From positions 20,798,260 through 20,862,259 of the forward strand of contig OZ316897.1 in NCBI GenBank assembly GCA_973895155.1: DNA of 64,000 bases, read 5' to 3'. This DNA comes from Marsupella aquatica (lineage: Eukaryota > Plantae > Marchantiophyta). How positions within the stretch are numbered: position 1 is the first letter of the stretch; every line of letters starts with the position of its first letter. The notes beneath the pieces are model-generated. The model worked only from the letters and a program-made list of their open reading frames with translations, had not been told where the DNA came from and made no database searches. This document shows positions 4,101 through 61,897 of this stretch, piece after piece. The position numbers and the translations under genes are program-made.

Positions 4101-5526
4101 CGCGTCGATCCTCTTGCGTTTGTCGACACCACAATCCTCGAATAATTGCTCCGCTTCAGAGCATTGGTGTCAAATCTGTCATCAATCTCAACAGTAACTG
4201 TTAAATACCGACACCGAACAATCTCGATCGAAAGATGAAGCTTTCTAAATCGTATACAGCGGCGTCTTTACGCACCCACACGGTTTACATCCTTACGCAC
4301 TGTAATTCCAGAAACTGTTTAATGGGCGAGAGGATCGACGACATAGATAGGATCTATTGTATTAACGGGATTTATGGTACGTCGATTTCTGGATCGAATT
4401 GTAAGAGAGCTTCATGTTTACACAAGTACAAGGTTTAGAGCTTACGCAGTGTAATTAGGACCATTGCTCAATGGGAGTTGGAATCGACGGCAGTGATAGG
4501 ATCGAACGAAGGAACGGGATTTATGGGCCGTCGATGGTGCGTCCCGGGAACGTCCTTGAAAGCCGCCTTGGCACGGTATCTTGCAAAGAACAGTGCCGGA
4601 GTGCCGGTTATGCGGTCGGCCGGGTACCGTTTGGCAGCTTCTCGGAAACCTCGTCGGGAACCTTCAGTTCGGGATATTTTTTAACGTTTTTTAAGATAGC
4701 GAATGACACCTTGTGCCAAGGAGCACATGCTAGTATCTACTTTTATTATATTATTTTTCGCATTTTTAGATCACCCTAATTTAGAAAATGAAGCCAGGAT
4801 GGATCTCTAAGTTTGTTAAAATGCTCACATGTATTTTTGCAAATGGAGATGGACTGCATTTTACTTGCAATGCCACAAAAAATATTCCTACTTAGTCCAT
4901 CTCAATTATGTAGTTTCTGTCTAGGGTCCATGGGAGCATCATTTTCCCGTAATTTAAGATTGATAGTTTCATTCTGGCTAATGGGGTTTGTGGTTAGGTG
5001 AGAACAAGCTTGGCAACCAGTTTTTAGTGACATATCATTCTGGTGTTACCTTATTTAGAAGCCTACTCAGGTTACTTAGTTTAATAAAGATTTTCATATA
5101 TATTTGTATTTCAATTTGCCTTAAGCCACCACTGTCCACCAGGTCCCGGGTGGGAAAAAAGTGCAATTTAATACTTTTTAGAGAACATTATTCACTCATT
5201 TTAGTAACCTGGATCCACCAGGTTTGCTTCAGGGACTATGGCCCTTTAAACAAAGTGTATCTTTTGTATTTATTATTTGAGTTTTGATTTCCGTTTTCTA
5301 GAGTGACCCCCTCGATCTCTAGGTCTATATTTATGTCCCAATCTTGCCCATCCTTTGTTAATATATTTTATTATCCTTATATTCAATATTAAATTGACAT
5401 ATCAAACATGAGGGATACCAAAACCCAAACCCCTATCTTTGCAAGAGTATGAGAAATCCCGCTGAGAGTAAAAAATAAGAAGTTCAACATAATGTCAACC
5501 ATGTGACAACCATTTGTCTTATTTTT

Positions 5527-5664
5527 TGTCGTGCGCATACATATCGCTACACAACATACATCGCTTGTCACATACATCCAGACATAGTCACACTGCCACA
5601 TCACAAATACAAGAGAATGGAATACAAGTGGAACTCATGTCCACACATGTCCAAAACCCACAAT
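5527..5664 (-). repeat. Terminal repeat segment A (outer copy, 138 bp)
   Basis: Matches 5996-6133 with 2 substitutions (tgtc/tatc, cactgcc/cactacc). Confidence 0.92.
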
Positions 5665-5993
5665 AATCTCCATACAATCGGCACAACGATCTCGGTCAAC
5701 AATACCCCATCGATCCCGCACCGATCCGATCACACACGTATGTCAAGCCAACGCACCTTGCACTACTCAAGGAATCCACGTTACACAAGCGGAGCTCACA
5801 GCCACCATAGCCACACTCAAGCTCCTCTCTCTCCAAGGCTCAACATTGAAAGATGACCTTTCAATGCCTCACAAGTGAGAAGTACCCTCTCACACAAACC
5901 TGACAGAACCTTATCGGCTCCAATAGCACTCATACCAAACGTACATACTCTAATAGCACGATATACTACTACACTACTCAGAATGGTGTGACA
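5664..5993 (-). repeat. Terminal repeat segment B (3' copy, 330 bp)
   Basis: Matches 21359-21688 with 2 CpG transitions (ccacgtt/ccatgtt, gcacgat/gcatgat). Confidence 0.92.
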
Positions 5994-5995
5994 AC

Positions 5996-6133
5996 TATCG
6001 TGCGCATACATATCGCTACACAACATACATCGCTTGTCACATACATCCAGACATAGTCACACTACCACATCACAAATACAAGAGAATGGAATACAAGTGG
6101 AACTCATGTCCACACATGTCCAAAACCCACAAT
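5996..6133 (-). repeat. Terminal repeat segment A (inner copy), directly after the polypurine tract
   Basis: Direct repeat of 5527-5664. The minus strand reads PPT AGGGGGGCG-AT-TGTGGGTTTTGG. Confidence 0.9.
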
Positions 6134-6142
6134 CGCCCCCCT
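6134..6142 (-). promoter_or_regulatory. Polypurine tract of the gypsy element
   Basis: Minus-strand AGGGGGGCG, 2 nt before the TG start of repeat A and downstream of the integrase stop. Confidence 0.7.
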
Positions 6143-6306
6143 AGCTGGGAGTAAGGTCCCCTAACTCTAGCTAGCCATGAGTTCTACAAGGTTGATATAC
6201 ACCTTTTTAGGTGTGAAGATCAGGAGGCCGGGTGCAAGTGAGCCCCATCGATCACCTACCTGCAATCCATATCTGCCAAGAGAACACAAATGATAACTAG
6301 TCGGCT

Positions 6307-7656
6307 TCACCGACACTGAGGACACAACCATGATCCACTAGGAATCACCTGCAATGGTGGTGTCAAACATGATATGTGCCATCCTCTAGAACACTTATCA
6401 CAAATCAACATAGTAGCTGCTCCCTGAGCAGATCCACACAACATACATTTCAAGCCAGCACGAACATGTGCCAAGCTTGGATCTACTGTACCATCAATGT
6501 TGGGAAGGTGACATGGTGCACAGTTGCGCACATGATCCTTCCAAACCATACCATCGCGTCCCTTCAACATCAGGACACCAGAAGGCAACACTTCACGCAC
6601 ACGTAAGATTGTCCGGTCTGCGGTCACATCAAGTGTCGTGGGTGCTGTCTGCTGCAAATAAACATAATCACCAAGATGAAATCGTCGAATGCTTGCACGG
6701 TAACCTCCTCCACGAATAGTGGCATACCTCAAAGTATCACGATGTTGGGCAATGGCAAGGTTGTCAAAAGCCATGGGCATCACTCTCTGAAATACCCGTG
6801 CTCTCTCTGAACACACCTTGACCCAAACATCAAGATCATCCAAGTTCACAACTGGTGCAGCATGACGACGAATAGCTGCTGGCAAATCTGGCTCTCTACC
6901 ATAGAGCAAAAAGTAGGGTGAGAAGGATGCAAGTGATGCTTGCCGACTGAAACGGTAGCCAATAGCTAACCAAGGTAGCTGGAGATCCCAATCTCCCAGA
7001 TGACCAACCTGCAAGCCATACTTACACAATCCTCTCTTCACAGTTTGCACAACTCTCTCAGCTAATCCATCTGCCTCAGGATGATCACGAGAGGTAGTGC
7101 GATGATCAATCAGAGCTTGTTCACACAAACTCTCAAACTCTCCACGGAACTCAGTTCCCTGATCAGTCAATACCTCAGCTGGTGCTCCAAAATGACGGAG
7201 TACACGATCCAAAAATGTAGCAGCAACTCCTCCACTGGCTTTATCTGGCAACGCCACTAGCTCAATCCACTTGGAGAAGTGCTCCACCATGACCAAAACA
7301 TACCGATTATGACGTTGGGTAAGAGGTAATGGACCAGCAAAATCCAAACTCCAACGATATCCCAAACCCATGATCGGTAACGGGTGCAACTGGGGAGTGG
7401 GAGCATTAAATGATGCTCTCACTCTGTCACATACCACACACTTAGCTATCAACTGCTGGACATGAGTGTGCATACCACGCCACCAATATTGTGTCTGCAG
7501 CAAGCTGTAAGTGCGCTTCACACCAAAGTGAACCAACTCCTCGTGCGCATGTCGCACCAAATGTACTTGTTGTGATGGTTTTGGTACCACCAACATCCTA
7601 CCATCATGCAGTACTCTCAAAAGATGGTTTCCCTCCCATCGAAACCTCTTGGCTCT
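6307..7656 (-). pseudogene. Gypsy integrase (HHCC zinc finger, DDE core) with C-terminal PHD finger
   Basis: HEELVHFG...CVVC; WSLDFAGP, VLTDQGTEF, ADGLAER. The C-terminal CMLC...ICDKCSRGWHISCL...WLCPQC is a C4HC3 PHD finger. Confidence 0.92.
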
Positions 7657-8074
7657 CTATAGAACCCTGTCACGTTCCTTGGCATCAACACTGCCAACAA
7701 TAGAACTATTGCGCAGATATTCCAACACTCTCACATCATTGTGAATATCTTGCTGTCCAGAAGTTACCTCACCAATATCCACATCTGAAGACTCATCATC
7801 CACTCCATCCAATGAGGTAGAGTCCACAGATCCACTGTATGCTGGCACCCAACAAAGAAAGGCAGATGCATGCCATCCTGGCACCATCTCCTTATCTGAC
7901 TCATCATGCCATCTAGCTCCAGTCTCATCCTGCTGACTGGTACATGGATTGCGGCTTAATCCATCTGCATCCAAGTTCACTTTTCCAGGCCTATGCACCA
8001 CCTGGAAATCATACTCCTGAAACAACAATGCCCATCATGCAAGCTTCCCTGTAAGCTTGTCAGACTCCATTAAC
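7657..8074 (-). pseudogene. End of gypsy RNase H and linker (3' of the copia insertion)
   Basis: KWLMESDKLTGKLA*WALLFQEYDFQVVHRPGKVNLDADGLSR continues ...TDHQPLK from 14688 across the CACTT TSD. Confidence 0.9.
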
Positions 8075-8079
8075 CACTT

Positions 8080-8554
8080 TGTTGGGTATTTACTCTTACG
8101 TCTAGGTTAGGTATGACGTGGTTGGTACAACAACGTGGGTTGGTACAACTACGTGGTTAGGTACAACTACGTGATTAGGTACAACTATGTGGTTAGGTAC
8201 AACTACGTGATTAGGTACAACTATGTGGTTAGGTACAACTACGTGATTAGGTACAACTATGTGGTTAGGTACAACTATGTGGTTAGATACAACTAAGTTG
8301 CACACTATATCATAAGAGGCATGTGTGCTTGGAGAGGTAGAACCAAGGCTCATTGTTATGGAGCCACTTGAGAGATAGGGAGAGCGTACACTGTGGAGAC
8401 TCGGTATAGCCGACGGGCTTAGAGTTCAGTAAAGCTCTCTTGTGTGTTCCCGTGGACGTAGCCTCAAGGAGGTGAACCACGTATCTCTTGTGTCGACTAT
8501 TGTGCGTTGGATGGTTCATGGGCTTGCCGTTGCGATCGTCGTCTATGCTCAACA
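8080..8554 (+). repeat. Copia 5' LTR containing an 18-bp tandem array (about 10 units, G(G/A)TTAGGTACAACTA(C/T)GT)
   Basis: TGTTGGG...CAACA; array at about 8104-8295; direct repeat of 14208-14682. Confidence 0.95.
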
Positions 8555-8556
8555 AT

Positions 8557-8568
8557 TGGTATCAGAGC
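8557..8568 (+). promoter_or_regulatory. Primer-binding site (initiator tRNA-Met)
   Basis: TGGTATCAGAGC, 2 nt after the LTR. Confidence 0.93.
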
Positions 8569-9708
8569 ATGCTTGGGAGGTGACGTGTGTTCGTGACGGG
8601 ATTTCATGACGGTTTTTCCAGCGTTGAGTGTTGGTGGATTTTCCAGAGTTCCATCGCATGGAACTTGGAGTTTATGGGCTCAACGGATAGATCAGGGCAA
8701 GAGCTTTCTAACGGTGTGAAGAAATCGTTGAACGGAGCTCGTGGTGCAGAGAGATCTAAGTTTTCGTCGTTCTGGATTTTGTGAAGAAAGTTGGCAATCG
8801 ACTCAGAGGGAGAAGCGTCAAGTGTTTTGACTCAACGGAGAGATTGAGGCAAGACGATTGTTTTTGAGTCCGGGATTGGCTCTTTGATGCAAAGAGGAAG
8901 GCTAAGCAAAATCAATTACCTTGTTGGACTTGGTGACGGCACCAAGTGCAATTGATCAACATTCATTGTTGACAAGGTACCATTTTTTTCTCTTTGAAAA
9001 ACTGATTCGAAATTGGCTATGGCAATTGAGAGAAATCTGTCATTTTTACCAATTTTTTTCTCCCTCGTTCTTTCCTCGTTTTGGGTGCTTCTTATATCGA
9101 TCTTCATCGCCTCGGAGTCTAGTTTCCAAATCTGAAATCGGATCTTGATTTCGTCAAAACCCGAGTGAGATATCTTGCGTTTGGTGTCGAGGGGTACATT
9201 CTGCCGTGTGTATTTTCTGCGCGCGCGACCAGATTTCGACGACGAAAGGTGGTAGGTGGTTTTGGGGGTTCGAGGACACATGTCAGCCCCTCGATTGTTC
9301 TTCCAAAATTCCCACAGGGCCTGTACAAGGGTCATAGAATATTCCAAAAAACCAGAGAGCTATTTTTTGACCGTCCGACAAAGATTTCATCCACCGAACG
9401 GTAACTTTTTTGGTTATTTTTCGGCGAGGTCATAGCCATTGAAGTTGGCAATGCAGCGCACCAATCACATCGCAATTCCGACAACGGGTTGTACTTGGTA
9501 TTTCGGTTATTCCCTGAGGTGGTCAAAACGGGGGAGTTTCCCAAGGTTTTACCCACCTCGACCAAAATTTGAATAACTTTTCCGTCAAATTTCGATTTTG
9601 ATTTCGGTTTTCAGTATTGGACTCCTAGCTTTGTGGGCTACGCGGCGGTGTTGAGTTTCGAGTTTTTTGAGAAGTTGTGAAAAACAACATTTTTTGTGAC
9701 TTTCTCAT

Positions 9709-10731
9709 ATGAGTGATTCGGAGGAGTTTTTTGAAGACGTGGAACTTGAAGCACGAGGATCACCGCGGAGGTTTCAGGGGCAGAGAGAGGAGCAGGAGGA
9801 AGAGCACGTGACACCGATACCATCACCGGTGCGGCGTGTGGTGGAGGAAGCAGTACTACTACCGGAGCTCACGGTAAAGAAGAAGATGGGGACTTTCAAG
9901 CTTGGGGGACCCAAGTATGAAGTGACAAAGTATGATGGGCGCTCTGACTACTTGCTATGGGAGAAGCAGGTGAAGGGAGTGCTTTATGCGTCAAGGATGG
10001 GCCAACTGCTGAGCCCTCGTGAAGACGATGTTGATGAGAAACAATGGGACCGCATGCAGGAGCAGGGAGTGTGGTGTGTTACACTCTATCTCATGCCTCC
10101 CATCATCAAGCAGTTGGGTGCACATAAGGATTGCATGTCCTTATTTGCGGAATTGCAGAGCAAGTATCACCGCAAGGAGTTGTCGAACCGGCTCTACACT
10201 TCCTACAAACTGATGAGTTTCAGGATGAAGGAATCTGGTACGAAGTTGCAAGACCATGTGGATGCTTTCAACGACATGGTTGTTGACTTGAAAAACCTTG
10301 GGAAGACTTTGAATGATGAGACGAAGGCTCTGCAACTTCTTAGTTCATTGCCTCCATCTTACCAGTCCCTATCACGAGTGTTGTTGCATCATGATAGGGA
10401 TACCATTTCATACAATGACGTGGTAAGTTCTCTGCTTAGTGATGATCTTCAGCAGAAGATGCACATCACGTCACAGCCTTCATCATCTGGTGCTGCCCTC
10501 AATGTTAACCGTGGGAGGAGTATGCAGCGACCAACTGGGGACCGTAGAACCCAGTTTAGATCTAAATCCAGATCTAAGTCCAAGGGTAAATCCCCTCAGA
10601 GGAGGCAGGTGACATGTTGGAAGTGCAACCAAGTTGGACACTTCAAGCAAGACTGTAAGGGAAAGGCAGCGGAAACTTCATCGGCAAATGTGGCTAGGGC
10701 TGATGGAGAAGCTGATTTACTCAATGATTAG
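9709..10731 (+). CDS. Copia Gag (UBN2-type, CCHC knuckle CWKCNQVGHFKQDC)
   Basis: KYDGRSDYLLWEKQV, LLSSLPPSY and zinc knuckle; ends at an in-frame TAG. Confidence 0.9.
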   Translation: MSDSEEFFEDVELEARGSPRRFQGQREEQEEEHVTPIPSPVRRVVEEAVLLPELTVKKKMGTFKLGGPKYEVTKYDGRSDYLLWEKQVKGVLYASRMGQLLSPREDDVDEKQWDRMQEQGVWCVTLYLMPPIIKQLGAHKDCMSLFAELQSKYHRKELSNRLYTSYKLMSFRMKESGTKLQDHVDAFNDMVVDLKNLGKTLNDETKALQLLSSLPPSYQSLSRVLLHHDRDTISYNDVVSSLLSDDLQQKMHITSQPSSSGAALNVNRGRSMQRPTGDRRTQFRSKSRSKSKGKSPQRRQVTCWKCNQVGHFKQDCKGKAAETSSANVARADGEADLLND

Positions 10732-10878
10732 TATGTTTTATGAAGCCGGGGGTATGCCCTGTGCACGTCATCTAGGAGAGCAGATGATGTGTGAATTCTT
10801 GATTGTGCTTGCTCTTTTCATATTTGTTACATTCGTGAGTTTTTTAGTTCTTACTCTATTTCAAACGGTTCAGTTCTG

Positions 10879-13800
10879 ATGGGAAATGATCACTCCTGTC
10901 AAATTGAGGGAATTGGGTCTGTGAAGATTCAAATGTTTGATGGCGCTGTGCGCACAGTGTCCGGAGTCAGGTATGTACCTGGCATGCGTAAGAATCTGAT
11001 TTCACTCGGTGTGTTGGATTCAAATGGTCATCAATGGAGCGTTATTGATGGTGAACTTCAAGTCAGGTCGGGAGAGACAATGATTTTGAAGGGGAGTAGA
11101 CAAAAGAATTTGTATGTGTTACAGGGCAATACTGTATGTGGAGAGGCCAATGTAACCAAGTCTCACGAGGAGATGACTCAACTGTGGCATTCACGGCTAG
11201 GCCACATGAGTGAGAAGGGTTTGGCTATCTTACGGAAGAATGGACTCATTTCTGATTTGCAATCTTGTAAATTAGAGTTTTGTGAGCATTGCATTCTTGG
11301 AAAGCAGCATCGTCGTGCTTTTGGTGTTGGAACTCATCGTTCCAAAGCGGTTCTTGAGTACATACATAGTGACGTGTGGGGTCCATCCCCGACTCCCTCA
11401 CACTCTGGAAAGTTGTACTATGTATCATTTATTGATGATTACTCAAGATTTGTGTGGATTTATTTCATGACGCATAAGTCTGATGTCTTGTCCATTTTTA
11501 AGAAGTGGAAGGCCCAGGTGGAGAATCAGACTGGAAACACGATCAAGTGTTTGGATACAAGGGTGAAGAGTCTGAGGTCAGACAACGGCGGGGAGTACAC
11601 TTCAATGGAATTTGAAGAGTACTGTTCAGAACAGGGGATAACTCGCCATCTCACCACAGTTTATACTCCGCAGCAGAATGGTGTCGCTGAGAGGCTCAAT
11701 CGGACACTGTTGGAGCGGTCACGGAGTATGTTGAGCCAATCAGGTTTACCACAAGAATTTTGGGCAGAAGCTGTCAATACCGCAGCTTATTTGGTAAATC
11801 TTTCTCCTTCTAGTGCTATCAATTTCAAAACGCCGTTTGAGATGCGCTATAAGCGGCAAGCAGACTATCATGGCTTGATAATTTTTGGAAGTGATGCATA
11901 TGCTCTCACACCAAAGCAGAATAGGACCAAGTTGGATCCTACCTCCAGGAAATGTGTTTTTCTTGGGTACCAGAGTGGTGTGAAAGCCTATAGGCTATGG
12001 GATCCTATTGCCTGTAAGCTCGTTGTTAGTAGGGATGTTTCCTTTAATGAATCCAGATTATTGAAGGAGGGGGAGAATACTCAGGTCTCCCGTACTGACA
12101 AAGGAAAATCTCCTATCCCGGATCTCGTTGAGGGGGAGATTGGTTATGAGGTGCATGACCGGAGAGAAGGAGTTGCTCCAATTATGGAGCTGGTTCCTGT
12201 GCCAGAGGAACCAGAGGAGTTTGTTGATGCTGGTGAGCAGCAAGTGGATGTTGTTGAGCTTCAAATTGTACCAGCACACGCAGATCAACCGGAGTCATCG
12301 GCTAGAAGAACATCTGGTCGCACTGTACGCGCTCCATCAAGGTATGGACAGTGGGTTGATTCATCTCAACTGCAAGAGGATGATTTTACAGCTGATGATG
12401 AGGGTGATGCGTTAATTTTGGAAGAAGGAGAACCTTCTTCATTTCATGAGGCAAGTGCTTCAAAGGAGAAGCAGAAGTGGACTGCAGCAATGCAAACGGA
12501 GATGCAGTCACTAAAGGACAACAAAACTTGGGAGCTTGTTAAGCTGCCTAAGGGTCAGCAAGTGGTGGACAGCAAGTGGATTTACAAGCTGAAGGATAAT
12601 TCCATAGGAGGTGGATCGAAGGTCTACAAGGCTAGATTGGTAGCAAAGGGATTCACACAAGAGAAAGGTGTGGATTACAATGAGGTCTTCTCACCAGTTG
12701 CTAAGTACTCTACAATACGACTATTGTGTGTACTTGTTGTAATGTTTGGTCTGCTCCTAGATCAGATGGATGTTGTCACAGCTTTCCTCTATGGCACATT
12801 GGAAGAGGTGATCTTCATGAGACAACCGCTAGGTTTTGTGAAGAGAGGACAGGAGGAATTGGTTTGCAGATTGCTGAAATCCTTGTATGGGTTGAAGCAG
12901 TCACCAAGACAGTGGAACAAGCGGTTTGACGATTGGATTCGGTCACAAGGTTTTCACAGAAGTGTATTTGACCCTTGTGTGTATTTGAAACCGGTGAAGA
13001 ATGTTGTCTTTGGGTTCATTGTTTTAGTACTTTATGTGGATGACATGCTAATTGCAGCCAAGGATAGGTCTGAGATTGTTAAGCTCAAGGCACTGCTTAG
13101 TGCAGAGTTTAAGATGAAGGACTTAGGGCCAGCTAAGAGGATTTTGGGTATGGAGATCACTAGGGACTTGGAGGCTGGCAAGCTATGGTTGACGCAGAGC
13201 AGTTATGCGAGGAAGGTAATTGCAAGGTTCAACATGGAGAATAGCAAGCCAGTAAGTACCCCGTTGGCTCCACACTTCAAGTTATCATCAGCGTTCTGTC
13301 CTACGGATGACACAGAGAAGGGGTTGATGTCAAAGGTTCCATATGACAAGGCAGTGGGGAGTCTCATGTATTTGATGACTTGCACTAGACCTGATCTTGC
13401 CATGGCTATGGGCAAGGTGAGCAGGTACATGTCGAATCCAGGGAAGGTACACTGGGAAGCAGTGAAGTGGATTATCAGGTACTTGAAGGGTACCGTGGAT
13501 CATGGTCTTTTATTTGATGCGAATGCAAAGAATGCTAGATCATTGATTGGCTATGTAGATTCTGACTATGGACAAGATTTGGACCGAAGGAGATCAACAA
13601 CAGGATACGTGTTCACACTTGGCGGTGGATGCATAAGTTGGAGGTCTACTTTGCAGAAGTGTATTGCTCAGTCTACTACAGAAGCGGAGTATGTTGCAGC
13701 TGCAGAAGCAGCAAAGGAAGCGATTTGGTTGGATAGACTTATCACTGAAATGGGATTGCCACAGGGGAATGTGAAGCTCCATTGTGATAGTCAAAGTGCG

Positions 13801-14016
13801 CTCCACCTTGCTGTGAACCAGGTGATGGACAGCAGAGTGAAGCACATTGACGTCAGGTACCATTTTATCAGGCAGGCTGTGTCTGATAATTTGTTTGAGC
13901 TAGTCAAGATTGATGGTAAACTCAACCCGGCTGACGCATTTACCAAAGTGATTCCTTTGGAGAGTTTCTCTAGACACCGTGACGTATTGCAGGTTTTGCA
14001 ATTGCATCACAAGTAG
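10879..14016 (+). CDS. Copia Pol (C-terminal part of protease, GAG-pre-integrase, integrase, RT, RNase H)
   Basis: LWHSRLGH, IHSDVWGP, LRSDNGGEY, QQNGVAER, YKARLVAKGF, LYVDDML, YVDSDY, KHIDVRYHF; intact 1045-aa ORF. Confidence 0.95.
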   Translation: MGNDHSCQIEGIGSVKIQMFDGAVRTVSGVRYVPGMRKNLISLGVLDSNGHQWSVIDGELQVRSGETMILKGSRQKNLYVLQGNTVCGEANVTKSHEEMTQLWHSRLGHMSEKGLAILRKNGLISDLQSCKLEFCEHCILGKQHRRAFGVGTHRSKAVLEYIHSDVWGPSPTPSHSGKLYYVSFIDDYSRFVWIYFMTHKSDVLSIFKKWKAQVENQTGNTIKCLDTRVKSLRSDNGGEYTSMEFEEYCSEQGITRHLTTVYTPQQNGVAERLNRTLLERSRSMLSQSGLPQEFWAEAVNTAAYLVNLSPSSAINFKTPFEMRYKRQADYHGLIIFGSDAYALTPKQNRTKLDPTSRKCVFLGYQSGVKAYRLWDPIACKLVVSRDVSFNESRLLKEGENTQVSRTDKGKSPIPDLVEGEIGYEVHDRREGVAPIMELVPVPEEPEEFVDAGEQQVDVVELQIVPAHADQPESSARRTSGRTVRAPSRYGQWVDSSQLQEDDFTADDEGDALILEEGEPSSFHEASASKEKQKWTAAMQTEMQSLKDNKTWELVKLPKGQQVVDSKWIYKLKDNSIGGGSKVYKARLVAKGFTQEKGVDYNEVFSPVAKYSTIRLLCVLVVMFGLLLDQMDVVTAFLYGTLEEVIFMRQPLGFVKRGQEELVCRLLKSLYGLKQSPRQWNKRFDDWIRSQGFHRSVFDPCVYLKPVKNVVFGFIVLVLYVDDMLIAAKDRSEIVKLKALLSAEFKMKDLGPAKRILGMEITRDLEAGKLWLTQSSYARKVIARFNMENSKPVSTPLAPHFKLSSAFCPTDDTEKGLMSKVPYDKAVGSLMYLMTCTRPDLAMAMGKVSRYMSNPGKVHWEAVKWIIRYLKGTVDHGLLFDANAKNARSLIGYVDSDYGQDLDRRRSTTGYVFTLGGGCISWRSTLQKCIAQSTTEAEYVAAAEAAKEAIWLDRLITEMGLPQGNVKLHCDSQSALHLAVNQVMDSRVKHIDVRYHFIRQAVSDNLFELVKIDGKLNPADAFTKVIPLESFSRHRDVLQVLQLHHK

Positions 14017-14207
14017 AGTTTTCTTAAACATTCATTGTAATTACTGATATATGCTCTTCCTCATTCCTATGTATTAGGCTACGGCTTAGTTCTGGTTTGC
14101 TCTAGTTAGAGAGGGAAACCGGTTTGGTTTCTGTCCAGAACTTCCCGCTGAGGGATCATATACATTGGCAGTATTACTCTCCCCTAGACCAGAGTCAAGG
14201 GGAAGAT

Positions 14208-14682
14208 TGTTGGGTATTTACTCTTACGTCTAGGTTAGGTATGACGTGGTTGGTACAACAACGTGGGTTGGTACAACTACGTGGTTAGGTACAACTACGT
14301 GATTAGGTACAACTATGTGGTTAGGTACAACTACGTGATTAGGTACAACTATGTGGTTAGGTACAACTACGTGATTAGGTACAACTATGTGGTTAGGTAC
14401 AACTATGTGGTTAGATACAACTAAGTTGCACACTATATCATAAGAGGCATGTGTGCTTGGAGAGGTAGAACCAAGGCTCATTGTTATGGAGCCACTTGAG
14501 AGATAGGGAGAGCGTACACTGTGGAGACTCGGTATAGCCGACGGGCTTAGAGTTCAGTAAAGCTCTCTTGTGTGTTCCCGTGGACGTAGCCTCAAGGAGG
14601 TGAACCACGTATCTCTTGTGTCGACTATTGTGCATTGGATGGTTCATGGGCTTGCCGTTGCAATCGTCGTCTATGCTTAACA
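14208..14682 (+). repeat. Copia 3' LTR
   Basis: Preceded by PPT AGTCAAGGGGAAGAT; followed by TSD CACTT. Confidence 0.95.
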
Positions 14683-14687
14683 CACTT

Positions 14688-16040
14688 AAGAGGCTGATGA
14701 TCAGTGATCAAGGTGAAGGGGTTACCAAACAAGTAGCAACGAAAGTGTGCAAGAGCCCACACTACTGCTAAACACTCTCCCTCATAAGAGCTATACTTAG
14801 CCTCTACTGAATTGTTTGATCTAATGGCATAAGCCACAACAAACTCATTTCCCTCATCATCCTTCTGAGTCAACACTGCTCCAAGTCCTACTCCACTCCA
14901 ATCAGTGTGTAGCTGAAATGGTCTGCCTGAAATGGGTCTTCTCAAAATAGGGGATGATGCCAACCTTTGCTTCAACTCCTGAAAGGCATGCTCCTGGTCA
15001 TCACCCCAAATCCATTCCTGATCCAACTTAGTGAGTATGGTCAAAGGTTTAGCAAGCTGGCTAAATCCTTTAACATACCTCCTGTAGTAGCTCGCCAATC
15101 CCAAGAATGCACGAACTCTACTCACATCAGTAGGACAAGGAATCTGTGTAATGGCCTCCAGTTTAGTCTGCTGTACACCCAATCCCCCTGGATATATGGT
15201 GTGGCCCAAATACTCAATGTGGTCTTGGAAGAACTTACACTTGCTAGGATGGAGCTTCAACCCATGTGCTCTCAATCTCTCCAACACAGTCTGCAAGTGC
15301 TGTTGATGTTCTTCCACAGTAGAAGAATAGACCAAAATATCATCAATATAACATCTGACAAAATCCAAACCTGCAAGGATTCGATCCATGACTCTCTGAA
15401 ACTCAGCTGGTGCATTCTTCAACCCAAATGGTAAGAATAACCATTGATACAAACGATCTTTGCCATAAGAATCAATCCCCCAGAATGCTATCTTGGACCT
15501 TTCAGCATGCCTAATTGGAAGCTGATGGTATCCTGCCCTCAGATCCAATGAACTGAAAACCTTTGCATGCCCCACAGCATCAAAGATCTCCTCAGGTGTG
15601 GGCATGGCATATCGATCAGATTTTGTCTGGCGATTAATAGGTCTGTAATCACCACACATGCGCCTATCTGTGTAATTGCCATGCACATCCTTCTTGGCTG
15701 GCATCACTGTGGCAGATGCATACTCCCCATATGAAATCTCTACCAATCCAACCTCCAACAAATCTTGAGTTCTGCTTTGAATCAAAGCTCTCTCCATGTC
15801 ACTATAACGGTATGGTCTATGAAAGATTGGCGCATCACTAGCCAATTCAATCTGAATACCAGGGCCCTTCAATGTCCCCAAATCCTTCATGCTGAATGCA
15901 AAACAATTCCAATAACTTTTCAGGAATCGATGCATGCGACGTCTCTCCTCCCCTGTTAACTTAGGGCCAAGCTGTGGTTCCCAACTCTCCACCAAATCCC
16001 TAATATCTCTTTGTAGGGTAGAAGAGATAGCCGATGATTG
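14688..16040 (-). pseudogene. Gypsy reverse transcriptase and RNase H (5' of the copia insertion)
   Basis: RMCGDYRPIN, SSLDLRAGYHQ, LPFGLKNAPAEFQR, YIDDILV, LHTDWSGVGLGAVL, ITDHQPLK. Confidence 0.95.
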
Positions 16041-17303
16041 CTATTTAGCAGTAGATTGAGCAGTCCCTTCCTGCTCAACAATCTGTCCAGCCGCCAATCC
16101 TGTCATAGGTCCATGGACTGTCTGCTCGCCCCCAGCTGTGGTCAATACTGTCTCAGTGGACCGCAAGCTCACCAAGGGATAATCAGTAATTTCGGCAGAG
16201 CGCATCCGCAACTGTTTAGCTACTCCCAAGCTGATAATCCAAGTCAAACAATTCAAATCCATTGCTTGACCAAGAACCTGGCGCCGCAAACCCTCTGACA
16301 CAGAGGCAACTGCAGTGGTGCCAGTCAAAAATCCCATAGCACGCTTTCTCTCATCAGCAGTAGGCTCCACTAACTGCTGGAGAGCTGTGTCCCATATAAG
16401 TCCAGGGCCACCTGCTCTGAATGCATATGAAGCAGAGTGGCTTACAAGAGTGGGTAATGCACAACGTGGGCACCCAACTGCATTGACCATTGCCAATGGA
16501 GGTCTATCAGGTTGGGTCACACCCTGTGCACGACGCCCTGGATCCAAAATATCATCCACCACTAAGGCTGGTGAGTGTGGAATACTGTCAAATGCGCGCT
16601 TCAGCACCTCACATGGGATCAAATTAGTCCACCACAAGCGTGGACGATGTGCACGAGAACCCACACGTGTAGCATCCAATAACATAGCAGGTCCAATCCA
16701 AGACCTCACCTGGTGAACACTGGCAACAATCCGACTATGATCATCACCTAACAATGGCACATTCTCCAAAATGTATGCTGGAGACTGTGTCTGATGTAGC
16801 TGGAGATGACGCAGCACCTGTAACATCTCCCAAAACAATGCAGAGCGTGGATCATGAAGTCCATGCCTAATGCCAGCTCTAGATTGGCCTTGACATGGCC
16901 AACCAGCAATCACCAAATCAATGGGGCCAACACGATGTAGATGATCCGCCCCCAACAATGAAATATCAGTAGGTAGTGCATGCTGATAACCACGAACAGC
17001 ATCCACTGGCAGCAACTGTGGATGTCTATCCACCAACATAGCCACATGTCGCAATGAGACCCTCCGTGTTGTCTCATCTGTCTCCACATACAAATAACGA
17101 CGCACAGGAATTCCTGCCTGAAGAATAGTAGCCAATCCAGTGCTAATCCCACCAAAAAGATCCAACAAACAAATACTCTCCGGTGGATACTGCCAAGCAA
17201 TAGGAGTGGTATCCAATGGTGAAAGAGTCACAGGTCCATCTGCAAGAGACTGCTCTGCTCCTGACTGTGGTGTAAAAGCATGACGCCATGCATCATGTAC
17301 CAA
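16041..17303 (-). pseudogene. DNMT3-like C5-cytosine DNA methyltransferase domain within the gypsy polyprotein
   Basis: Motif I LDLFGGISTG, II YVETD, IV IAGWPCQGQS (catalytic PC), VI ILENV, VIII RAHRPRLWWTNL, IX/X ERKRAMGF...RRQVLGQAM; same frame as PR and RT. Confidence 0.9.
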
Positions 17304-17315
17304 TCATGCTGCTGC

Positions 17316-19028
17316 CTATGGCAAGGCTTGTGCAGTGCCCCACACTGGTGGCACAACACTACCAATAGGTAATCCTCGCATGATGTGCTCCTCATGAGAC
17401 TCCTCCAATGGTGGAACATCGGCTGCATGTGCAATACCCTGAATCAAATCATCAGGTCCAGCAATTACACCACTGAATGCTGCCAAAGACAATGGTGTGG
17501 ATTTAGGGCCTCCCACAGGTCCACTAAATCTCACTGGCAATTTGCTCAATCGAGCATCTCCTGACTGCCAATCAGGTCTATATGACACTGATTCCTCCCA
17601 AAAATCAAGAATAAATCCCATGGGGTAGAGCACTGTACATCCCACCAACACATCATATGACTCTGCCTTAGTCAGAATAGCTCGCGCCTGTATCTGTGAG
17701 CTATCTGTGGTATGACCTTCCTGAATTCTCAAATCAAGTGGTCTCCTAGTGATATGCTGTGTAGGTGTAGGTCCCCCCAATGAAGTCTGAATGGGAAAGG
17801 GACAATCCTCCAAATCCTCTGGACGCAATCCCAATCCACGTATGGCAGACTTCCCCAACATCAAGGGCTGAGCACCAGTATCCAATAACACTCTCTCTGG
17901 CTGGTATACTGCTCCAGAAGGCCCAACTAATCGGAAGATACCACTCCGATTATCCAATGACACAACACTAGGTTTAAACCTAGTTCTCTCAAATGCAGGG
18001 CGTGCTGGTAAATCCACCAACCTCGTTGTTGCTGCATGCCATGTCTCACTAGTAGCAGTAGGTGGCATGGTCTTCACTGCATCAACACTGCAAGTTGCTT
18101 CTGCATGGGAAACAACCACTGGAGTGTCCTCACAGAGTGTAGCTGCCAATCTGAACACTTCTGCAGGACCAACTCCCAAGTTCAGCATGTCTGTCGCTGA
18201 AAATAATGGGGTGCGTACTATGGCAGTAGCCGCCCCCAACAAGGTACCTGTCATCCCTGCTACATCACTACCTGATTCTGCCAACTTACCCACATCAGGG
18301 TTTGTCCGAACCGGGTTCATAGAGGCAGTCTGAACTGTCTTTGACAATGTAAAAGACTGAGGAAGCTTTGTCTGCCGACGTGCATCCCCCCTTTGTGGAT
18401 CTAACTCCACTACTGCTCCTCGGGGCTCAAGAGCTTTGGCTACCCCACGTGTCAAAGCTGCTGATGCATCAATATGTGCAGTGCCACACATGAATCCCAT
18501 GGTGGCAAGGTCTCCATCAGCTCCATAAGATGTGGAAGGACCATGGGATGTGGAAGGTCCATAGGATGTAGATGCCCCATCACCAAAATTAGGTCTCACC
18601 TGGGAACTTGCCATGGCAGCTAGTTGTTGCTCCAATTGAGCAATCTTAGCATCCTTTGGATCTATGGTTACAGCAGGGGCAGCGTCACCTCCCTGTCTCC
18701 CTGCATGTGGCATGCCACGACCACGTCCACCACCTCTACCTCCTCCTCCTCTTCCCTGATCATGTGTACGGGATCCTCCTCTCCGTAACTCAGGGTGGAG
18801 TGAGAAACACCTATCCTTGGTGTGTCCAGGAGCTCCACAGTGATCACACTGTCGCTGATCAGGCGTTGATGCTCTCCCTGATCCTCTATGATCTGGACAA
18901 TATCTTTGTGCATGATCCCCACCACAGGTCCAACATCCTGACTGCTGTCCAGGATAAGAGGGCACAGGTCTTTGGCTGGTAGACTCTCGTGCAGTAGGCT
19001 TCTCCCTCTGGCTCTTCCGTGCAGTAGG
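17316..19028 (-). pseudogene. Gypsy Gag C-terminus (two CCHC knuckles) and aspartic protease
   Basis: CWTCGGDHAQRYC, CDHCGAPGHTKDRC; protease VLLDTGAQ...YDVLVG. Confidence 0.88.
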
Positions 19029-20030
19029 CTATGGTGTGGATGTAGATGCAGCCTTTGGTGCTTCCTTGGCAAATCCGGAAGTCACCACCTTCTCATTCAC
19101 CATATTGAGCTCAATGCGCTCAGAAAGGGTGAAAACAACTGCTAATGTGGGATCTGCATCCCTAAGCAGAGTGACATCTCTCACTCTGCGTCGCAATTCT
19201 CTGTCCAAAATTGCATACCAAAACTGGACTGCCTGAGCCTCTGTCACTCCCTTGGTGACAGTGATCAATCTGCGCATACGTGTGTATGCCTCACGTAGGC
19301 TCTCTCCAATCTTGCATTGGAACTCCTAAAGACCCTTCAACTTATCAGTTCTCACACCCTGATAGTTCTGCTTCAGTACCTCAAAGAATTCCACCACAGG
19401 ATTAAATGCTGGCGCAACTCCAGTTCCTATCACAATCACACCGGCAGGAGTAGTGGTGGATGCTGCTGGAGTGCTGCTGGTGGATGGTGTGCCACTCTGG
19501 CTAGTGCTGCTAGAAGAAGCAGCAGCTGTGGCAATGGGTTGGGCAGCCGCACTAGTGCCATAGGTGATGGACACGTAATTAGGCGACCAATGCTGCCTCC
19601 ATGCATCAATCTCAACCAAATGAGCCTTCCGAAACTCATGGTAGTCATCCATGGGTGGCCCCTCCAAATGCTGGAATAATCCCTTCCATGCCATGAAAGG
19701 GGTAAACAACGTGACGTTACGCAATGTCTGCATATCGCACCACGTATCAAACTCCTGGATGAAGTTATCCAGATCAATTATGCCAACTGCATCAGAGTAT
19801 CGTCGTGGGCCCTTTGTAGCCCCGTACATCTCGTCCATATCCCACAACAAAGGTGCAACCACCTGATGATGAGGAGAACTGGTCACTGAGTCCTCATCAT
19901 AATCACTGTCTGAAGCTGCACTGCTGACTGCTACCAATGCCGCTGGCCGAAACTGTGCCCCACTCCGAGTGAAACCGGTCTGTCGTCCATCGGGTAATCC
20001 AGCAGCACCAGAAGAATCCGTGGTGACCAA
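19029..20030 (-). pseudogene. Gypsy Gag N-terminal/capsid region
   Basis: Same frame as the downstream polyprotein, with TAG stops at 19326 and 19029; DLDNFIQEFDTW and FQCKIGESLREAYTRMRRL are gag-like. Confidence 0.7.
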
Positions 20031-20588
20031 CCCTAACCTAATCTATGTGCTAACCCTAAGGGCAATCTATCCCTGTCAGCACCACAAGCACTCACCATGG
20101 TGTGTTGGGCATCACTCCAACATCACCAAGAGAGAAATACACAGCACACTAGAATGTCTAGTTGCAAACCCGGATCACTCCTATGGAATCAAGCGCCCAC
20201 ACGAAACTAACATGGCGCATAAACAGGAAACATGTGTGAAGAGGATCCAGAAACAAGAATGGATACCATTCAACTCTCCACACAAAAGCAAATGCAAATC
20301 AATATGACAATGTGCATAAGGTTCAAGGAAGAGCCTTCATAATAGGCTTCACAATGGCACTCCAATGTTGTAGATGAGAACCAAGGCAAAATTGGTTCAA
20401 TCTGTGAGTCTAGATGGACTCAGAAGTATCAAAAACCCTAGAACAGCCTCTGATTTGGCCTAGAATAGGCCTCTAAACAAACTGGGAAGTGTATAAAGCC
20501 CCCTGGCGCTTGAATCTAAACAACAAGTTGTCAAAGCTTGTGTGTACACAAGGTGGGATGAGAACTTGCCATTTAAGCGCTCGTGGCT

Positions 20589-20757
20589 GGAAATAGCCCC
20601 GGGATGGGTGACCTCCTCGCGCTCGATCTTGTGCCTCCCCTCGCGCTCACGGCCCGGAATAGCCCCGGGATGGGTGACCTCGACCTCGCGCTTGCCTGCA
20701 CTCGCGATGGGTGACTTCGCGCTCGTGGTTGGGAGCACTTTTGGGATGGGTGACCTC
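20589..20757. repeat. Dispersed GGGATGGGTGACCTC motif (4 copies) in the gypsy 5' leader
   Basis: GGAAATAGCCCCGGGATGGGTGACCTC-like sequence twice, plus two shorter GATGGGTGAC copies. Confidence 0.7.
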
Positions 20758-21000
20758 ACGCGTCGCCTCGCGCCTGACCCCAAAAACAACTACTTCCTTC
20801 ACGAAAAGCTCCCGAAAACTGTCGATTTCCTTCATGAAAAACGCAGCCCTTCCACAGAATTGGCAGCAGCTTGATTCAACACCTTTGACCCTCGTTTCTT
20901 TCACTAAAACGATGATACCGTCGCACGGGGCATTGGCAGCTCCGTTCCTTCAGGAAAAGAGCCGTCGCTTCACCTGCGCCTTGCCAACATCGTCCAACAA

Positions 21001-21088
21001 TAGCCGGCAATCAGATTTGAAGCCCCACAGTAGCCGACAATCAGATCTGAAGCCTCACAGTAGCCGGCAATCGGATCTGAAGCCTCAC
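21001..21088. repeat. 30-bp tandem repeat x3 (TAGCCGGCAATCAGATCTGAAGCCTCACAG) in the gypsy 5' leader
   Basis: Visible tandem units; gives SRQSDLKPHS x3 in ORF 20711-21361. Confidence 0.85.
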
Positions 21089-21358
21089 GGATCGACTTCC
21101 ACTGTCCAACATCTACTCAACATTCGCTTTCCTCCACGAATCATCAATCGACCTCCAACTCAAAACCTGTCACCAATCACAGATCTGTACATCGATCGGG
21201 AAGCAGGCCGATCGGACAACAACGATACAGGTCAAGATACCAACGATCTGTTCGATAACAACACACAATCCGAGCTACCACGAACCATCAACAACTCAAT
21301 CAATCGAACTTCTGTCCGCACAGTCCGTACATCAGATTTCGAATGTGATCTTTCAATG

Positions 21359-21688
21359 TAATCTCCATACAATCGGCACAACGATCTCGGTCAACAATAC
21401 CCCATCGATCCCGCACCGATCCGATCACACACGTATGTCAAGCCAACGCACCTTGCACTACTCAAGGAATCCATGTTACACAAGCGGAGCTCACAGCCAC
21501 CATAGCCACACTCAAGCTCCTCTCTCTCCAAGGCTCAACATTGAAAGATGACCTTTCAATGCCTCACAAGTGAGAAGTACCCTCTCACACAAACCTGACA
21601 GAACCTTATCGGCTCCAATAGCACTCATACCAAACGTACATACTCTAATAGCATGATATACTACTACACTACTCAGAATGGTGTGACA
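21359..21688 (-). repeat. Terminal repeat segment B (5' copy); with 21357-21358 it reads TGTCACACC...GGAGATTACA on the minus strand
   Basis: Direct repeat of 5664-5993; segment A is absent beyond it. Confidence 0.92.
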
Positions 21689-22868
21689 TTTTGCTTTCAA
21701 TGCAATGAATTTTTATTTCTAAGTTTCCTTTCTTTTTGTGTGGCACAAAATTTCAGAGTCATAAAGTTGGATAGGATCTTCATTTAGTTTAGACTGTTAA
21801 GTGGCAATAGGACCCTTTGTCCATGGAATGCATTTTTATTGATAACTTTGACTGGAGGGATAAGTTGGTTTATTTAATTATTAAGATCCCACAGAATGCT
21901 TTTTGTGCAGTAGTCAAAACAAATATGTACATAAATCTCATGCAAGTTTAGATCATATTCCAGCAAAGCCCGGAACAATTAAAGAGCCTCACTGAGGAGA
22001 GAGTATCTAAAAGGCAAGAAAATCCAATTAAGACATTGAAAGTCTAGGAAGGCCAGAAAGCCCCAAAAAAACCAGGAGCCAAAAACCTAGCAAGATTGTA
22101 GTAATAGTTAGGCTAATCCTAGTCACAAATTTGATTAGGTTCCCATATGGGCTATTGTTTTTTAATCTTTTGAAGTGAGGCAGAGTGACAAGCCCCTTCA
22201 TATGGGCAATAAGAGCCTCTCAAAATTTGAGCTGTAGCCCTTGTTTTTGTGGAGATTTATGGCCCACAATGCTCAGTAGACAGGATGTTACTTTTTTCAA
22301 ACATAGCTCGCGGTGTATATGATATGGAAACTTGTTAGATCTGATTTGATGTGGCTACTAGGAGGGGTATGATCCCTCGTTAACATCCACTTTTCCTTTG
22401 TTGCATTTGCCACCTCATTTTCTAGTTTGGCTGTTTGAACTGGATCTTTTGTTTGGGTTCATTTGAAAGGGCCTTTTATCAAACTGAGAGAAAAACCCTA
22501 AGAGCATCCGCACCGGACAGCCATTCAAGGCGCCCAACAGTGAAAATGCAGGGATTCCTTTGGGAATCCACTTTTGGACTCCCCACCGGAACACAACAGG
22601 GTTCCACTAACACCCAGGGCCCGCCGAAACTCGCTCCTGCCACACCACTTCTGCCCTACAGTAGCGGCCCTGGCTTTGCCCGCCAACGGACCTCCTGTTT
22701 GGCTGAATGGTCGAGATTGAAGGTCGCAGCTGGATCTGACGGACGGAAGGAGGCGATGCTAGGCCCAAAATCCATGAACACATTTGATGATGACACCTGC
22801 CCGAGCTCCTTGTGGTGCTACAGTTTAGGGACTGTGTAAACTGTAGTCGCTGTAGTTGCGGGATCACC

Positions 22869-26310: not shown

Positions 26311-28747
26311 TCAAAGTGACTTCCCCTCAATTTGAGGCTTTCCCTTATCCTGCGGTTTGGGCTTCCCCTTGCCTTTGCCTTTCCCCTTCCCTCTCCCCTT
26401 CTGCCACTTCAGATAAATTTGATATGACAGCCCAGTAAACACCATGGCAACACCCCCCCACTGTTCACATGTGAGGGCATTGCCATTCCAGAGGGCTGAG
26501 ACTAGAATGCTGACAAACTTCCGAGTGGTAGTAATGGTGGTGTTAGTCAAAGCACCAAAACGACTAATTGTCATAAATATAAAATTCTGGCCAATTGCAC
26601 CACACAGGCAATACATCAGAACGTCATAAGCAGCTTCAGGATGCTCTCTACAAAACTGTATCGCCTCATAGCCACCACCTTTGGACCAACCGAACATGAA
26701 AATTGTCATGTATATGGATCCCCAAAAGTTCATTCCCAACATCAGCTGCCAACCACTTGTCTTAGGGTAACTGCAGAGACAAACGGACGACACACATCAG
26801 CAAATCTCCAGGCAGCAGGACAACACTTCACTGCAACGGATCCATGAAGGAAAACAAAATTGTGCTGCGAAGGAAAAAGTTTTTTATTGTGCATACTGAA
26901 CAGGAGGACAATTCTTGTCAGCTTGACATACCTCAATTTGATTGAATCTTGAGTTGAATTTGTAAACCCATCAAGTAGCAGATTCAAAAAACATAATCCA
27001 TATCCATAAGCTGCATTTGGACTTGCAACAGTGCTAAATTTCTTGCTGCTACTCTGCAGGAAAGAATTTTTAAGCACAAAGAAAACAAGCCTCATGAATG
27101 CCGGCCACTCAGAAATTCAAAATGTCTCAACATTTCTGACTCAAAAACACCTTCATCAAAAAGATTACCTAGTGATGCAACTCGAAAGCTGACCAGAATT
27201 ACATACAGCCTACAGCCTACCATCAGACAGCAAACTCAGAAAAACCATCTGACCGGCAAGGGGAGATCCCTAAATAACTCCACAAGAAATCAAAAGCCAC
27301 GTTTCACAGCTACTGACCTTGAACAGAGCAAATGAAGCCACACCACCCGCAACCAAAAACGTGCAAAAGTATTCAGGCCACGTATAGTGCACTCCATAGA
27401 CGATTGCGCCCATGAACATTACTGCCATCCAACAAGAATCAAATCAGTTGGTCCCATCGGCTGTATGTTATAATCACCGCTTAAGCGCCAGATCAGATTA
27501 CGGGACTTGTTGTAATGGCCCAAAACTCTACTGAGCTGAAAGTGAAATAATGGAAAATAATCGAAACGTTGCGAAGAATGTCCTATAGCAATGAATCTGA
27601 AGAAATTGTTCTAATGCAAGCAAGTCTTCAATTTCATAAAGCACCTTCACAAAACCTAAATAAAACCAAGGAATAAGGAAGGTAAAAGTACAGGTACGCT
27701 TATTTGGGTGCAAAAACGGATGTGATATATACCTGGAATCATCTTCGATGATTTGGCCAGCACCTGTTGAGGAAATCAGAATAAAAGTAACACCGTCAGG
27801 ATCGAGCAGCTATAAACTTCTAAGAGGATGTACACTAAGGTATTACGTGAAATGAAAACGGATACTGCGGTAAACAGCAAGGTTTCAATGTTAAGGACGA
27901 GAAATGCTCTCTGATCTCGCACTCATACACCTTGGAAAATGGCACAGGATGGCAAAAAATCACCTGGGCAGGATAGCTTATATATTTCAGTGCCAGGATT
28001 CCGCAAGCTGGTCCGACGGAATTCGTGATACTGGCGCTCCAGAAAGTCCATAGTGGAGCTTGAGAGGTACTCTTCCGACTCCACAGTTCCAACACTGCTC
28101 TTCAATTTCAACCCAACAACTACGTGTCAAGCGGATGTTATGGCATTCCATTCTAGCAATGCTGTATATATATCCACTGACGACTTCGCAGCTTTTCAGC
28201 TTTAACGCAACAAACCGAACATTTTCGACCTGCTAGTGGCAAACCTAGACCAGCAACAAGTACTTTTAATGTTTGGGAAATCCTACTGTTCGCATTTTTA
28301 AGTTGAACAGCAGTAAAATTCATACAGTGACGTGATAAAGCCAAGAGTGAGAACTCACTAATAAAAGACCAAACGAAGCAAACGACATTTTGAGCCCAGT
28401 TGAGAAACGTGAGGTGCTCAAATCTTTTGCCATCAGGCCCAAATTTCTTCGTAGACCTGTTCAGCCAAACGGTTCCAACAATGAAAGTTTCAGATCAGCT
28501 GAAAAGAGTATCTGAAAAGTACCTGGTATTTAATTCAGTAAGATACTAACGTCTAACCAAAATGGAGGACCCTCCAGTGCCTGGATAGAAAGTAGAATTG
28601 ATAGATTCTCGCTATCAAGAAACACGGCAATTAGACTTCAACAACTTACAAGTTTTCCTGCAGCACGCCTTGATAGACATAAGCAGACCAGATGCCTAGC
28701 ACGCACAATCCGAGAAGCAGAAGGCGCCCCACGGCACCGTCTGCCAT
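26311..28747 (-). CDS. UDP-galactose/UDP-glucose transporter (UTr1/UTr3, SLC35B1-like), about 7 exons
   Basis: MADGAVGRLLLLGLCVLGIWSAYVYQGVLQE; FEHLTFLNWAQN; SITNSVGPACGILALKYISYPAQVLAKSSKMIP; LDGFTNSTQD; GQNFIFMTISRFGALTNTTITTTRKF; GT-AG introns; Lys-rich tail. Confidence 0.92.
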
Positions 28748-44800: not shown

Positions 44801-45029
44801 GCAGAAGGAGGCCGAGTTAGGAAAATCCTATTAGGCGATTATTGTGTTACGATAGGAGCTTGCATCCCTGACGGCCAGCTTCAAGGCCGACCTCCGTGAG
44901 AAAGACGACCAGCTCGACTAGACTTATGCCAAGATGAATAAAATGGAGTCTGAGGTCGTAACGGAGCTCGACAAGGAGCTAAGAGCAACCCAGGAAGAGA
45001 GGGCTACCTTAAAAAGGAAGCTAGAGGAA
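41894..45029 (+). mobile_element. Older, decayed and truncated copy of the giant ORF-containing LTR
   Basis: Starts TGTGATGCCTAG like 53768. ORF fragments 42235-44834 are homologous to 53883-57533, with many stops; cut at 45030 by another LTR. Confidence 0.88.
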
Positions 45030-61700: not shown

Positions 61701-61897
61701 GGGGACAATCTATGGACACCAAGGAAGGGACCGACTCGGCTAGTCCAGCCGAGATTCCAGTTTATGGAGGTATGAGATTAGAGAGACTGGAAGCCGAACT
61801 GGACCCGAATTTGAAGAAGCAGATTAATATGATCCAAGCACGACAATGATTTGCGGCCAGGCCTGCCAACCAAGTAGGACATTGCCCTAGCATATGA
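58716..61897 (+). pseudogene. Gypsy Gag (three CCHC-type knuckles) and protease, truncated before RT
   Basis: FHGRGDEDPDEWLDDF...GEARPWY; in-frame TGA at 58995; CALCYKTGHHKDAC, CYNCGQPGYFAREC, CMGCRQEGHMLGQC; VPIDGGSG...LLIGRPWL. Confidence 0.88.

Follow-up and report, generated by a model that had tools for sequence, protein, structure and literature searches.

A split-repeat Gypsy family whose copies are bounded by the halves of an internal palindrome, probably through an internal cut

Split repeats combined with Gypsy domains are on record for KnitGypsy-Dnmt3 of Klebsormidium nitens, to which the legend of Fig. 4c assigns DIRS-like repeats (PMC5890265; de Mendoza et al. 2018). Here we analyse an element of similar make-up from the liverwort Marsupella aquatica, which occupies positions 5527 to 21688 on the minus strand of a 64,000-nucleotide stretch of contig OZ316897.1 (the window, meaning the whole stretch) and carries two repeat segments, A and B, arranged so that the integrated copy begins at B and ends at A. 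It shares with KnitGypsy-Dnmt3 both a Dnmt3-like domain inside a Gypsy polyprotein and the split repeats, and the layout is therefore already in print, though without a mechanism: the available text of that article is silent on termini, a palindrome, target duplications, priming and the integration route, and its main text does not mention a PHD finger (PMC5890265). KnitGypsy-Dnmt3 was published for K. nitens, whereas the names attached to close relatives of the window element are those of liverworts and peat mosses. K. nitens integrases are 51-54% identical to the window integrase, two of three having a PHD finger, and no methyltransferase named from K. nitens occurs among the 120 of 149 matches listed or among 45 longer matches. 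The available portion of Neumann et al. (2019) mentions neither PHD nor methyltransferase.

Other systems resemble the element in part. PAT and Ngaro elements have split direct repeats (A-body-B-A-B) with outer ends that are the halves of the internal joint, but theirs is a tyrosine recombinase, whereas the window family has a D,D(35)E integrase, a polypurine tract and 4-bp duplications. The Tf1/sushi elements and plant Tcn1 share an 11-nt repeat sequence complementary to the adjoining site, with no tRNA-type site, but as far as the available accounts go they have ordinary long terminal repeats (LTRs) at both ends (PMC7175516, PMC6317226). Their chromodomain after the integrase has no match in the window element, which has a PHD finger instead; the complement to the primer site co-varies in four subfamilies of the window family, with a predicted RNA start. 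HIV-1 integrase, according to the sections available, can cleave the palindromic junction of two-LTR circles, and these can serve as a source for integration, but the cut site is the LTR-LTR join, the product an ordinary provirus and the route a side route (PMC1905944, PMC4372172); the window family appears to use a separate, encoded palindrome within the repeat as its sole route. In ISCth4 (IS256 family), IS911 and IS30, a DDE enzyme likewise integrates abutted ends across a short spacer in a circle junction, which the available description has the transposase build from flanking DNA (PMC7780238), whereas the window family carries the junction within its own sequence and reproduces it by reverse transcription. 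A literature search outside subscription journals and Repbase found no account of this integration route.

The window element has the Ty3/Gypsy order protease-reverse transcriptase-RNase H-integrase (the protease under the Pfam cutoff, a methyltransferase between protease and reverse transcriptase), the D,D(35)E integrase with its zinc finger, a short target duplication and TG...CA ends. It lacks a complete LTR, with the primer site and the polypurine tract as its bounds, at each end and stops instead at the internal A/B joint. By its proteins it is thus Gypsy, and by its ends no canonical LTR element; nor is it a DIRS-order element.

Layout and ends of the family

Sequence comparison gives the minus-strand order B1-body-polypurine tract-A1-GT-B2-A2 (Table 1). 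B1 (21688-21359) and B2 (5993-5664), 330 nt each, differ at 2 positions, and A1 (6133-5996) and A2 (5664-5527) at 2 of 138; all four mismatches are C>T or G>A. The outer ends, TGTCAC and CGACA, are each bordered by AAAA (TTTT on the plus strand), and the internal A/B joint reads GATA-GT-TGTC. The initial annotation had described this order, these ends with their flanks and this junction, and all three hold. Because the AAAA duplication is placed in an A-tract it is weak alone, and the evidence for target duplication comes from relatives. The left flank (21694-21703) carries GCATTGAAAG, also present in B beside the predicted primer, and the right flank (5502-5510) carries GTTGTCACA, the same as the internal joint; both matches are probably due to chance. 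Related sites showed no target resemblance.

To survey relatives, we used an alignment of 27 integrase-PHD proteins as the query. The 88 related loci comprise 80 from metagenomes (the best 80 of 526), 7 from a genome collection and 1 from a viral collection, the last a single distant match without bearing. Named protein relatives among the matches listed come from Calypogeia, Marchantia, Riccia, Sphagnum, Klebsormidium and Haematococcus. Same-site duplicates were merged (L006/L013/L014, L019/L020, L026/L074, L028/L030, L032/L036, L035/L037, L057/L078, L060/L068, L069/L070 and L072/L073), and L017, which stops inside A, was dropped. The 3' ends then read A-nn-B-A-flank at 24 sites and A-flank at 21, the former falling in three sequence subfamilies beside that of the window. 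No A-nn-B-flank end was present among loci matching these repeats; two loci that read from B into the primer site (L003, L082) were handled as collapsed. At the 5' side, A preceded B at none of 12 visible ends. Both ends are visible at 11 sites, with 5 of the form B-body-A-B-A and 6 of the form B-body-A. An exact 4-bp target duplication borders six of these (L014, L019, L027, L049, L050 and L054) and a one-mismatch duplication three more (L001, L064 and L072). The duplications vary (AAGG, ACTA, TACA, CCAA, ATGT, ACCT) and are unlike the joint. The structure is therefore family-wide and not an accident. Nine distant or collapsed loci have no second A after the palindrome, so the full layout is demonstrated only for the window and three subfamilies, of which the L083-type shows it at the 3' end only.

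Several loci depart from the common form. The flanks of L024 (2510-2523 and 11588-11600) hold an imperfect duplication of ~8 nt, and the terminal TAGC of the left flank resembles the joint. In L054 (9335), L062 (7221) and L041 (3100), A stops one GTCACGACA unit short, likely through later loss between tandem units; L054 still has its 4-bp duplication next to it. L057 and L078 represent a deletion derivative in which integrase is followed by the latter half of B and by A, without A1 and the palindrome. Contigs with the element and palindrome that are filed under prokaryotic genome bins (L082-L086) are likely mis-binned eukaryotic contigs. Because repeat collapse in assembly yields the same picture, neither the circular-looking contigs L082, L046 and L088 (terminal overlaps of 123-141 nt) nor the A-GC-B-body order of L082 and L003 was used as evidence for circles.

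Further copies were sampled by aligning contigs of public sequencing runs, which may include the window's own source, to the window. Unlike flanks stack immediately before 5527 (11 contigs in run X1, 22 in X4, 2 in X5 and none in X2, with agreement of 0.4-0.63, among 24 of 312 loose ends listed) and behind 21688 (5, 3, 3 and 6 contigs in X4, X8, X3 and X2, among 24 of 42 rows listed). No stack was present at the polypurine-tract end or the primer end among the loose ends listed. The window's own flank junctions were matched with 0 differences (5300-5554 in two runs, 21661-22000 in two runs) by contigs reaching 28 letters into the element, the threshold for bridging being 31; no empty site was found among the loose ends listed at 5527 and 21688. 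Summed depth, which is not a copy number, reaches at least tens of thousands within the element against 16-390 on the flanks and suggests a high copy number. A separate stack of loose ends lies behind 5669 in three runs (6, 10 and 6 contigs; plus-strand start TCAAAAAAA), where A is fused to a different upstream sequence; it may be the B end of another subfamily or a short derivative. The expectation of the initial annotation that further copies would begin at B and stop at A amid unlike flanks thus holds in the run contigs, its call for target duplications is answered by relatives of the same layout with their 4-bp repeats, and ordinary A+B ends were seen neither among the loose ends listed for the run contigs nor in the relatives.

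A conserved joint, a variable joint and the predicted primer

The two joints between A and B behave differently. At the A/B joint, a spacer of 2 nt separates the two halves at all 24 sites (GC 9, AC 7, GT 5, AT 1, TC 1, AA 1); at 22 of them it is GC or a C>T/G>A derivative of GC. Since GT, AC and AT derive from GC by such changes, we take the palindrome GACA-GC-TGTC as the probable family form. The exact 10-mer GACAGCTGTC occurs in 13 of the 88 loci, as against 0.3 per shuffled set, and is kept in L067, L075, L080, L084, L085 and L086 at 42-50% integrase identity; in distant loci the palindrome lies 53-237 nt downstream of a G-run (the nearest G-run of L075 is closer). The B/A joint, by comparison, is exact or one transition off at 9 of 23 sites and inexact at 14, of which 5 are short by 2 nt and 9 otherwise altered. 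Among these alterations, L035 has lost most of B and L065 the start of A, filler occurs in L025, and remnants of the polypurine tract are present in L005, L025 and L047. This variable scar fits fresh end-joining in each cycle. A1 and A2 have a median distance of 0.073 within an element versus 0.124 between elements (L065, L072 and L079 excluded), with private changes common to both.

No tRNA-type TGG site directly follows B1. Instead, the 11 nt following B complement an 11-mer in mid-B, and four subfamilies do so with four sequences (ATCTTTCAATG in the window, AGTTCTTTGAG, GTTTTTCTAGA and TCTTTGTCAAG). The window self-primer pairs at 11 of 11 positions, which 0 of 300 shuffles reach. Across 15 B copies, pairing is 11/11 in 7 (0/300 shuffles each), 10/11 in 5 and 9/11 in 3, the last not above chance. 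TATA-like words lie ~25-35 nt upstream of the predicted primer in most relatives, and B1 is likely the seat of the promoter and transcription start. Folding of B RNA gave z-scores of -1.36 and -1.15. A hairpin, CATTGAAAG-GTCAT-CTTTCAATG (21539-21561), spans the predicted primer, and a copy of the primer site lies just upstream of it, as it does in the L001/L019 subfamily. Together, the self-primer and a polypurine tract ending in GGGGGCGA predict reverse-transcription ends whose exact join is the B/A joint of the window. The slight trimming that the initial annotation had read into this joint is not needed, and the CA of the LTR end ATTACA given there belongs to the start of the priming site.

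Proposed route of integration

We suggest that copies of this family likely come to begin at B and end at A because the internal palindrome is cut and the true ends are joined to each other. That integrase makes the internal cut at the palindrome is highly likely, and the intermediate is probably a circle. RNA would start inside B1, and its first 11 nt would prime the minus strand right after B1, a step modelled on Tf1, which primes with its first 11 bases (in the part of PMC7175516 available). By established LTR replication, this primer and the polypurine tract would then yield a linear A-GC-B-body-A-GC-B with ends that are not TG...CA. Host end-joining would fuse the B end to the A start and leave a variable scar. 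Integrase may next nick behind each CA of one palindrome. Across the 2-bp spacer, this would leave a CA-3'OH and a 2-nt 5' overhang on either side, as at the processed ends of retroviral DNA. Insertion with a 4-bp duplication and loss of the spacer, as seen in the genomic products, would give B-body-A-GC-B-A, and the B-body-A form may come from one-LTR circles cut alike or from later recombination between A1 and A2. The genomic form is a circular permutation of the predicted linear DNA, opened at the palindrome, without the 2-bp spacer and with a 4-bp duplication.

Several points weigh against this route. Since a symmetric two-LTR circle would carry the palindrome twice in identical form, the mirror form B-A-B-body-A is expected as well. 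It was absent from all 11 both-end loci and from all 12 visible 5' ends, a lack that speaks for a biased cut or for a join made after integration. The circle, the cleavage and the transcript start are all inferred from genomic copies, and the related loci stem from short-read metagenome contigs. Two of the 11 both-end sites (L024, L047) have no 4-bp duplication, and rare ordinary ends could still occur, since 24 of 312 loose ends are listed. The window copy is without a clear TATA word, and its minimum-energy fold does not contain the primer pairing. Exact and 2-nt-short B/A forms require 4 changes on a 15-row tree, which is the mode of 500 shuffles and hence no tree signal, but with 11 labelled rows (L035, L065 and L079 excluded) the power is low; the 2-nt loss could also be later slippage in ATAT. 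Finally, A2 sits closest to the A1 of the same element in just 7 of the 15 elements compared.

The absence of the mirror form bears directly on how the B/A joint is made. A possible but less probable course keeps the same internal cut and dispenses with the closed circle: integrase would bind and cut the left palindrome of the linear copy, whose repeat becomes double-stranded first, keep hold of both new ends and integrate them, and the cell would then join B and A in the chromosome, so that only the timing of the join differs from the route proposed above. It accounts for B-body-A-B-A without the mirror form, as observed, and for the variable B/A scars equally well, but demands a repaired double-strand break at every insertion, and the many B-body-A copies with 4-bp duplications (L014, L027, L049) are just what one-LTR circles should yield directly. 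One orientation would likewise follow if the joint arose from an end-to-end jump of reverse transcriptase, or had its template in the parent RNA, as models of Ngaro/PAT elements have it, to give an over-length linear DNA with each outer palindrome processed as one end. The 9 of 23 joints that are exact or one transition off fit this idea, which we nonetheless consider improbable: a templated joint should be inherited, yet joint types scatter over the tree, and A2 varies along with the A1 of its element and forms no lineage apart (A2-A2 distance 0.124, A1-A1 0.125). An end-to-end jump that is not inherited could still account for the joint.

Less probable still by a wide step, and largely refuted, is the idea that a tyrosine recombinase provided in trans inserts a circle at the A/B joint, in the manner of DIRS-order elements with split repeats. 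The repeat topology is indeed that of A-coding region-B-A-B DIRS elements, to judge from the available text (PMC5890265), but the 4-bp duplications vary and are unlike the joint, the 2-bp spacer is lost, the ends are TG...CA, the D,D(35)E integrase is conserved, and the frames scanned have no recombinase match. The idea of an ordinary LTR element that was rearranged in a single accident or misassembled was rejected as next to impossible: the A-tract position of the window duplication and the lack of an empty site among the loose ends listed would suit it, but the same ends recur in many copies and the same layout in three subfamilies. The suggestion of the initial annotation, a circular intermediate cut at an internal att site, is thus supported, as regards the cut, by the family layout, the duplications and the conserved GACA-GC-TGTC; the intermediate would be a closed two-LTR circle or, less probably, a linear copy joined after integration.

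Coding content, surroundings and wider meaning

The window copy is broken, as six in-frame stops in its body and a nested, unrelated Copia element attest. In-frame TAG codons lie at 19326 and 19029 in the gag/protease region, and two stops (17316 and 17304) directly precede the methyltransferase, the best solved-structure relatives of which are DNMT3A (E 1e-11). The Copia (6.6 kb, primer site TGGTATCAGAGC) parts its host between RNase H and integrase. No Pfam match to a tyrosine recombinase was found in the 14 frames of the element scanned (frames under ~100 aa lay outside the scan), which agrees with the initial description of a DDE integrase without a visible recombinase; the methyltransferase, PHD finger and nested Copia were absent from that description and are added here.

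Table 1. Features of the window element and its predicted functional sites (window coordinates)
Feature	Position	Strand	Remark
Left target-site duplication AAAA	21689..21692	-	adjoins B1 start
B1 (330 nt)	21359..21688	-	TGTCAC start is the integrated 5' end
Predicted self-primer ATCTTTCAATG, 11 nt	21539..21549	-	predicted RNA 5' end; complement of the site after B1
Predicted primer-binding site CATTGAAAGAT	21348..21358	-	directly 3' of B1
Gag-like region and aspartic protease	17319..20042	-	protease Pfam match weak, under cutoff
C5 cytosine methyltransferase, Dnmt3-like	16044..17303	-	PF00145, E 4.5e-11; between protease and reverse transcriptase
Reverse transcriptase and RNase H	14685..16040	-	broken by Copia
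Nested unrelated Copia	8080..14682	+	475-nt LTRs with 3 differences; 5-bp duplication CACTT
Integrase, H2C2 zinc finger, D105-D165-E200 (D,D(35)E), C-terminal PHD finger	6307..7656	-	catalytic residues intact
Polypurine tract AGGGGGGCGA	6133..6142	-	adjoins A1
A1	5996..6132	-	terminal GATA is C>T from GACA
Internal palindromic site GA(C/T)A-GT-TGTC	5990..5999	-	predicted integrase cut site; family form GACA-GC-TGTC
B2	5664..5993	-	second copy of B
B/A joint GGAGATTA/TTGTGGG	5657..5671	-	predicted end-to-end join of reverse-transcription ends
A2	5527..5663	-	terminal CGACA is the integrated 3' end
Right target-site duplication AAAA	5523..5526	-	adjoins A2 end

Elsewhere in the window there are three related long repeats (41893-45014, 53767-56843 and 61898-63597), one of them inverted at 98%, and a perfect 54-nt inverted pair (59973-60026 / 61846-61899) around a zinc-knuckle open reading frame (58998-61517). 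LINE-type zf-RVT pieces lie at 50695-53107, and an exon of a UAA-family nucleotide-sugar transporter at 26311-26796 on the minus strand.

In the textbook view, what LTR elements and retroviruses integrate are the ends made by reverse transcription, circles being dead ends or a minor reserve; circle junctions were reportedly once proposed as retroviral precursors and later set aside. We know of no LTR element for which the route suggested here is the normal one. The genomic copies show ends not expected from reverse transcription and implicate one 10-bp site and one enzyme. The chances seem evenly balanced that, throughout a clade of green-plant Gypsy elements, the ends used for integration have become separate from those made by reverse transcription, with a dedicated 10-bp att palindrome inside the repeat, which the DDE integrase must cut before any insertion, and circular cDNA, two-LTR and one-LTR, as the obligate substrate. 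If true, this would be a natural retroelement with circle-junction integration as its normal route; it would establish a mechanistic tie between retroviral-type integrases and circle-junction insertion sequences and would suggest an origin of split-repeat layouts without a recombinase. LTR finders seek paired terminal repeats and are likely to miss or mis-bound this very abundant, methyltransferase-carrying bryophyte family, whose close homologs in Marchantia polymorpha provide relatives in a laboratory plant.

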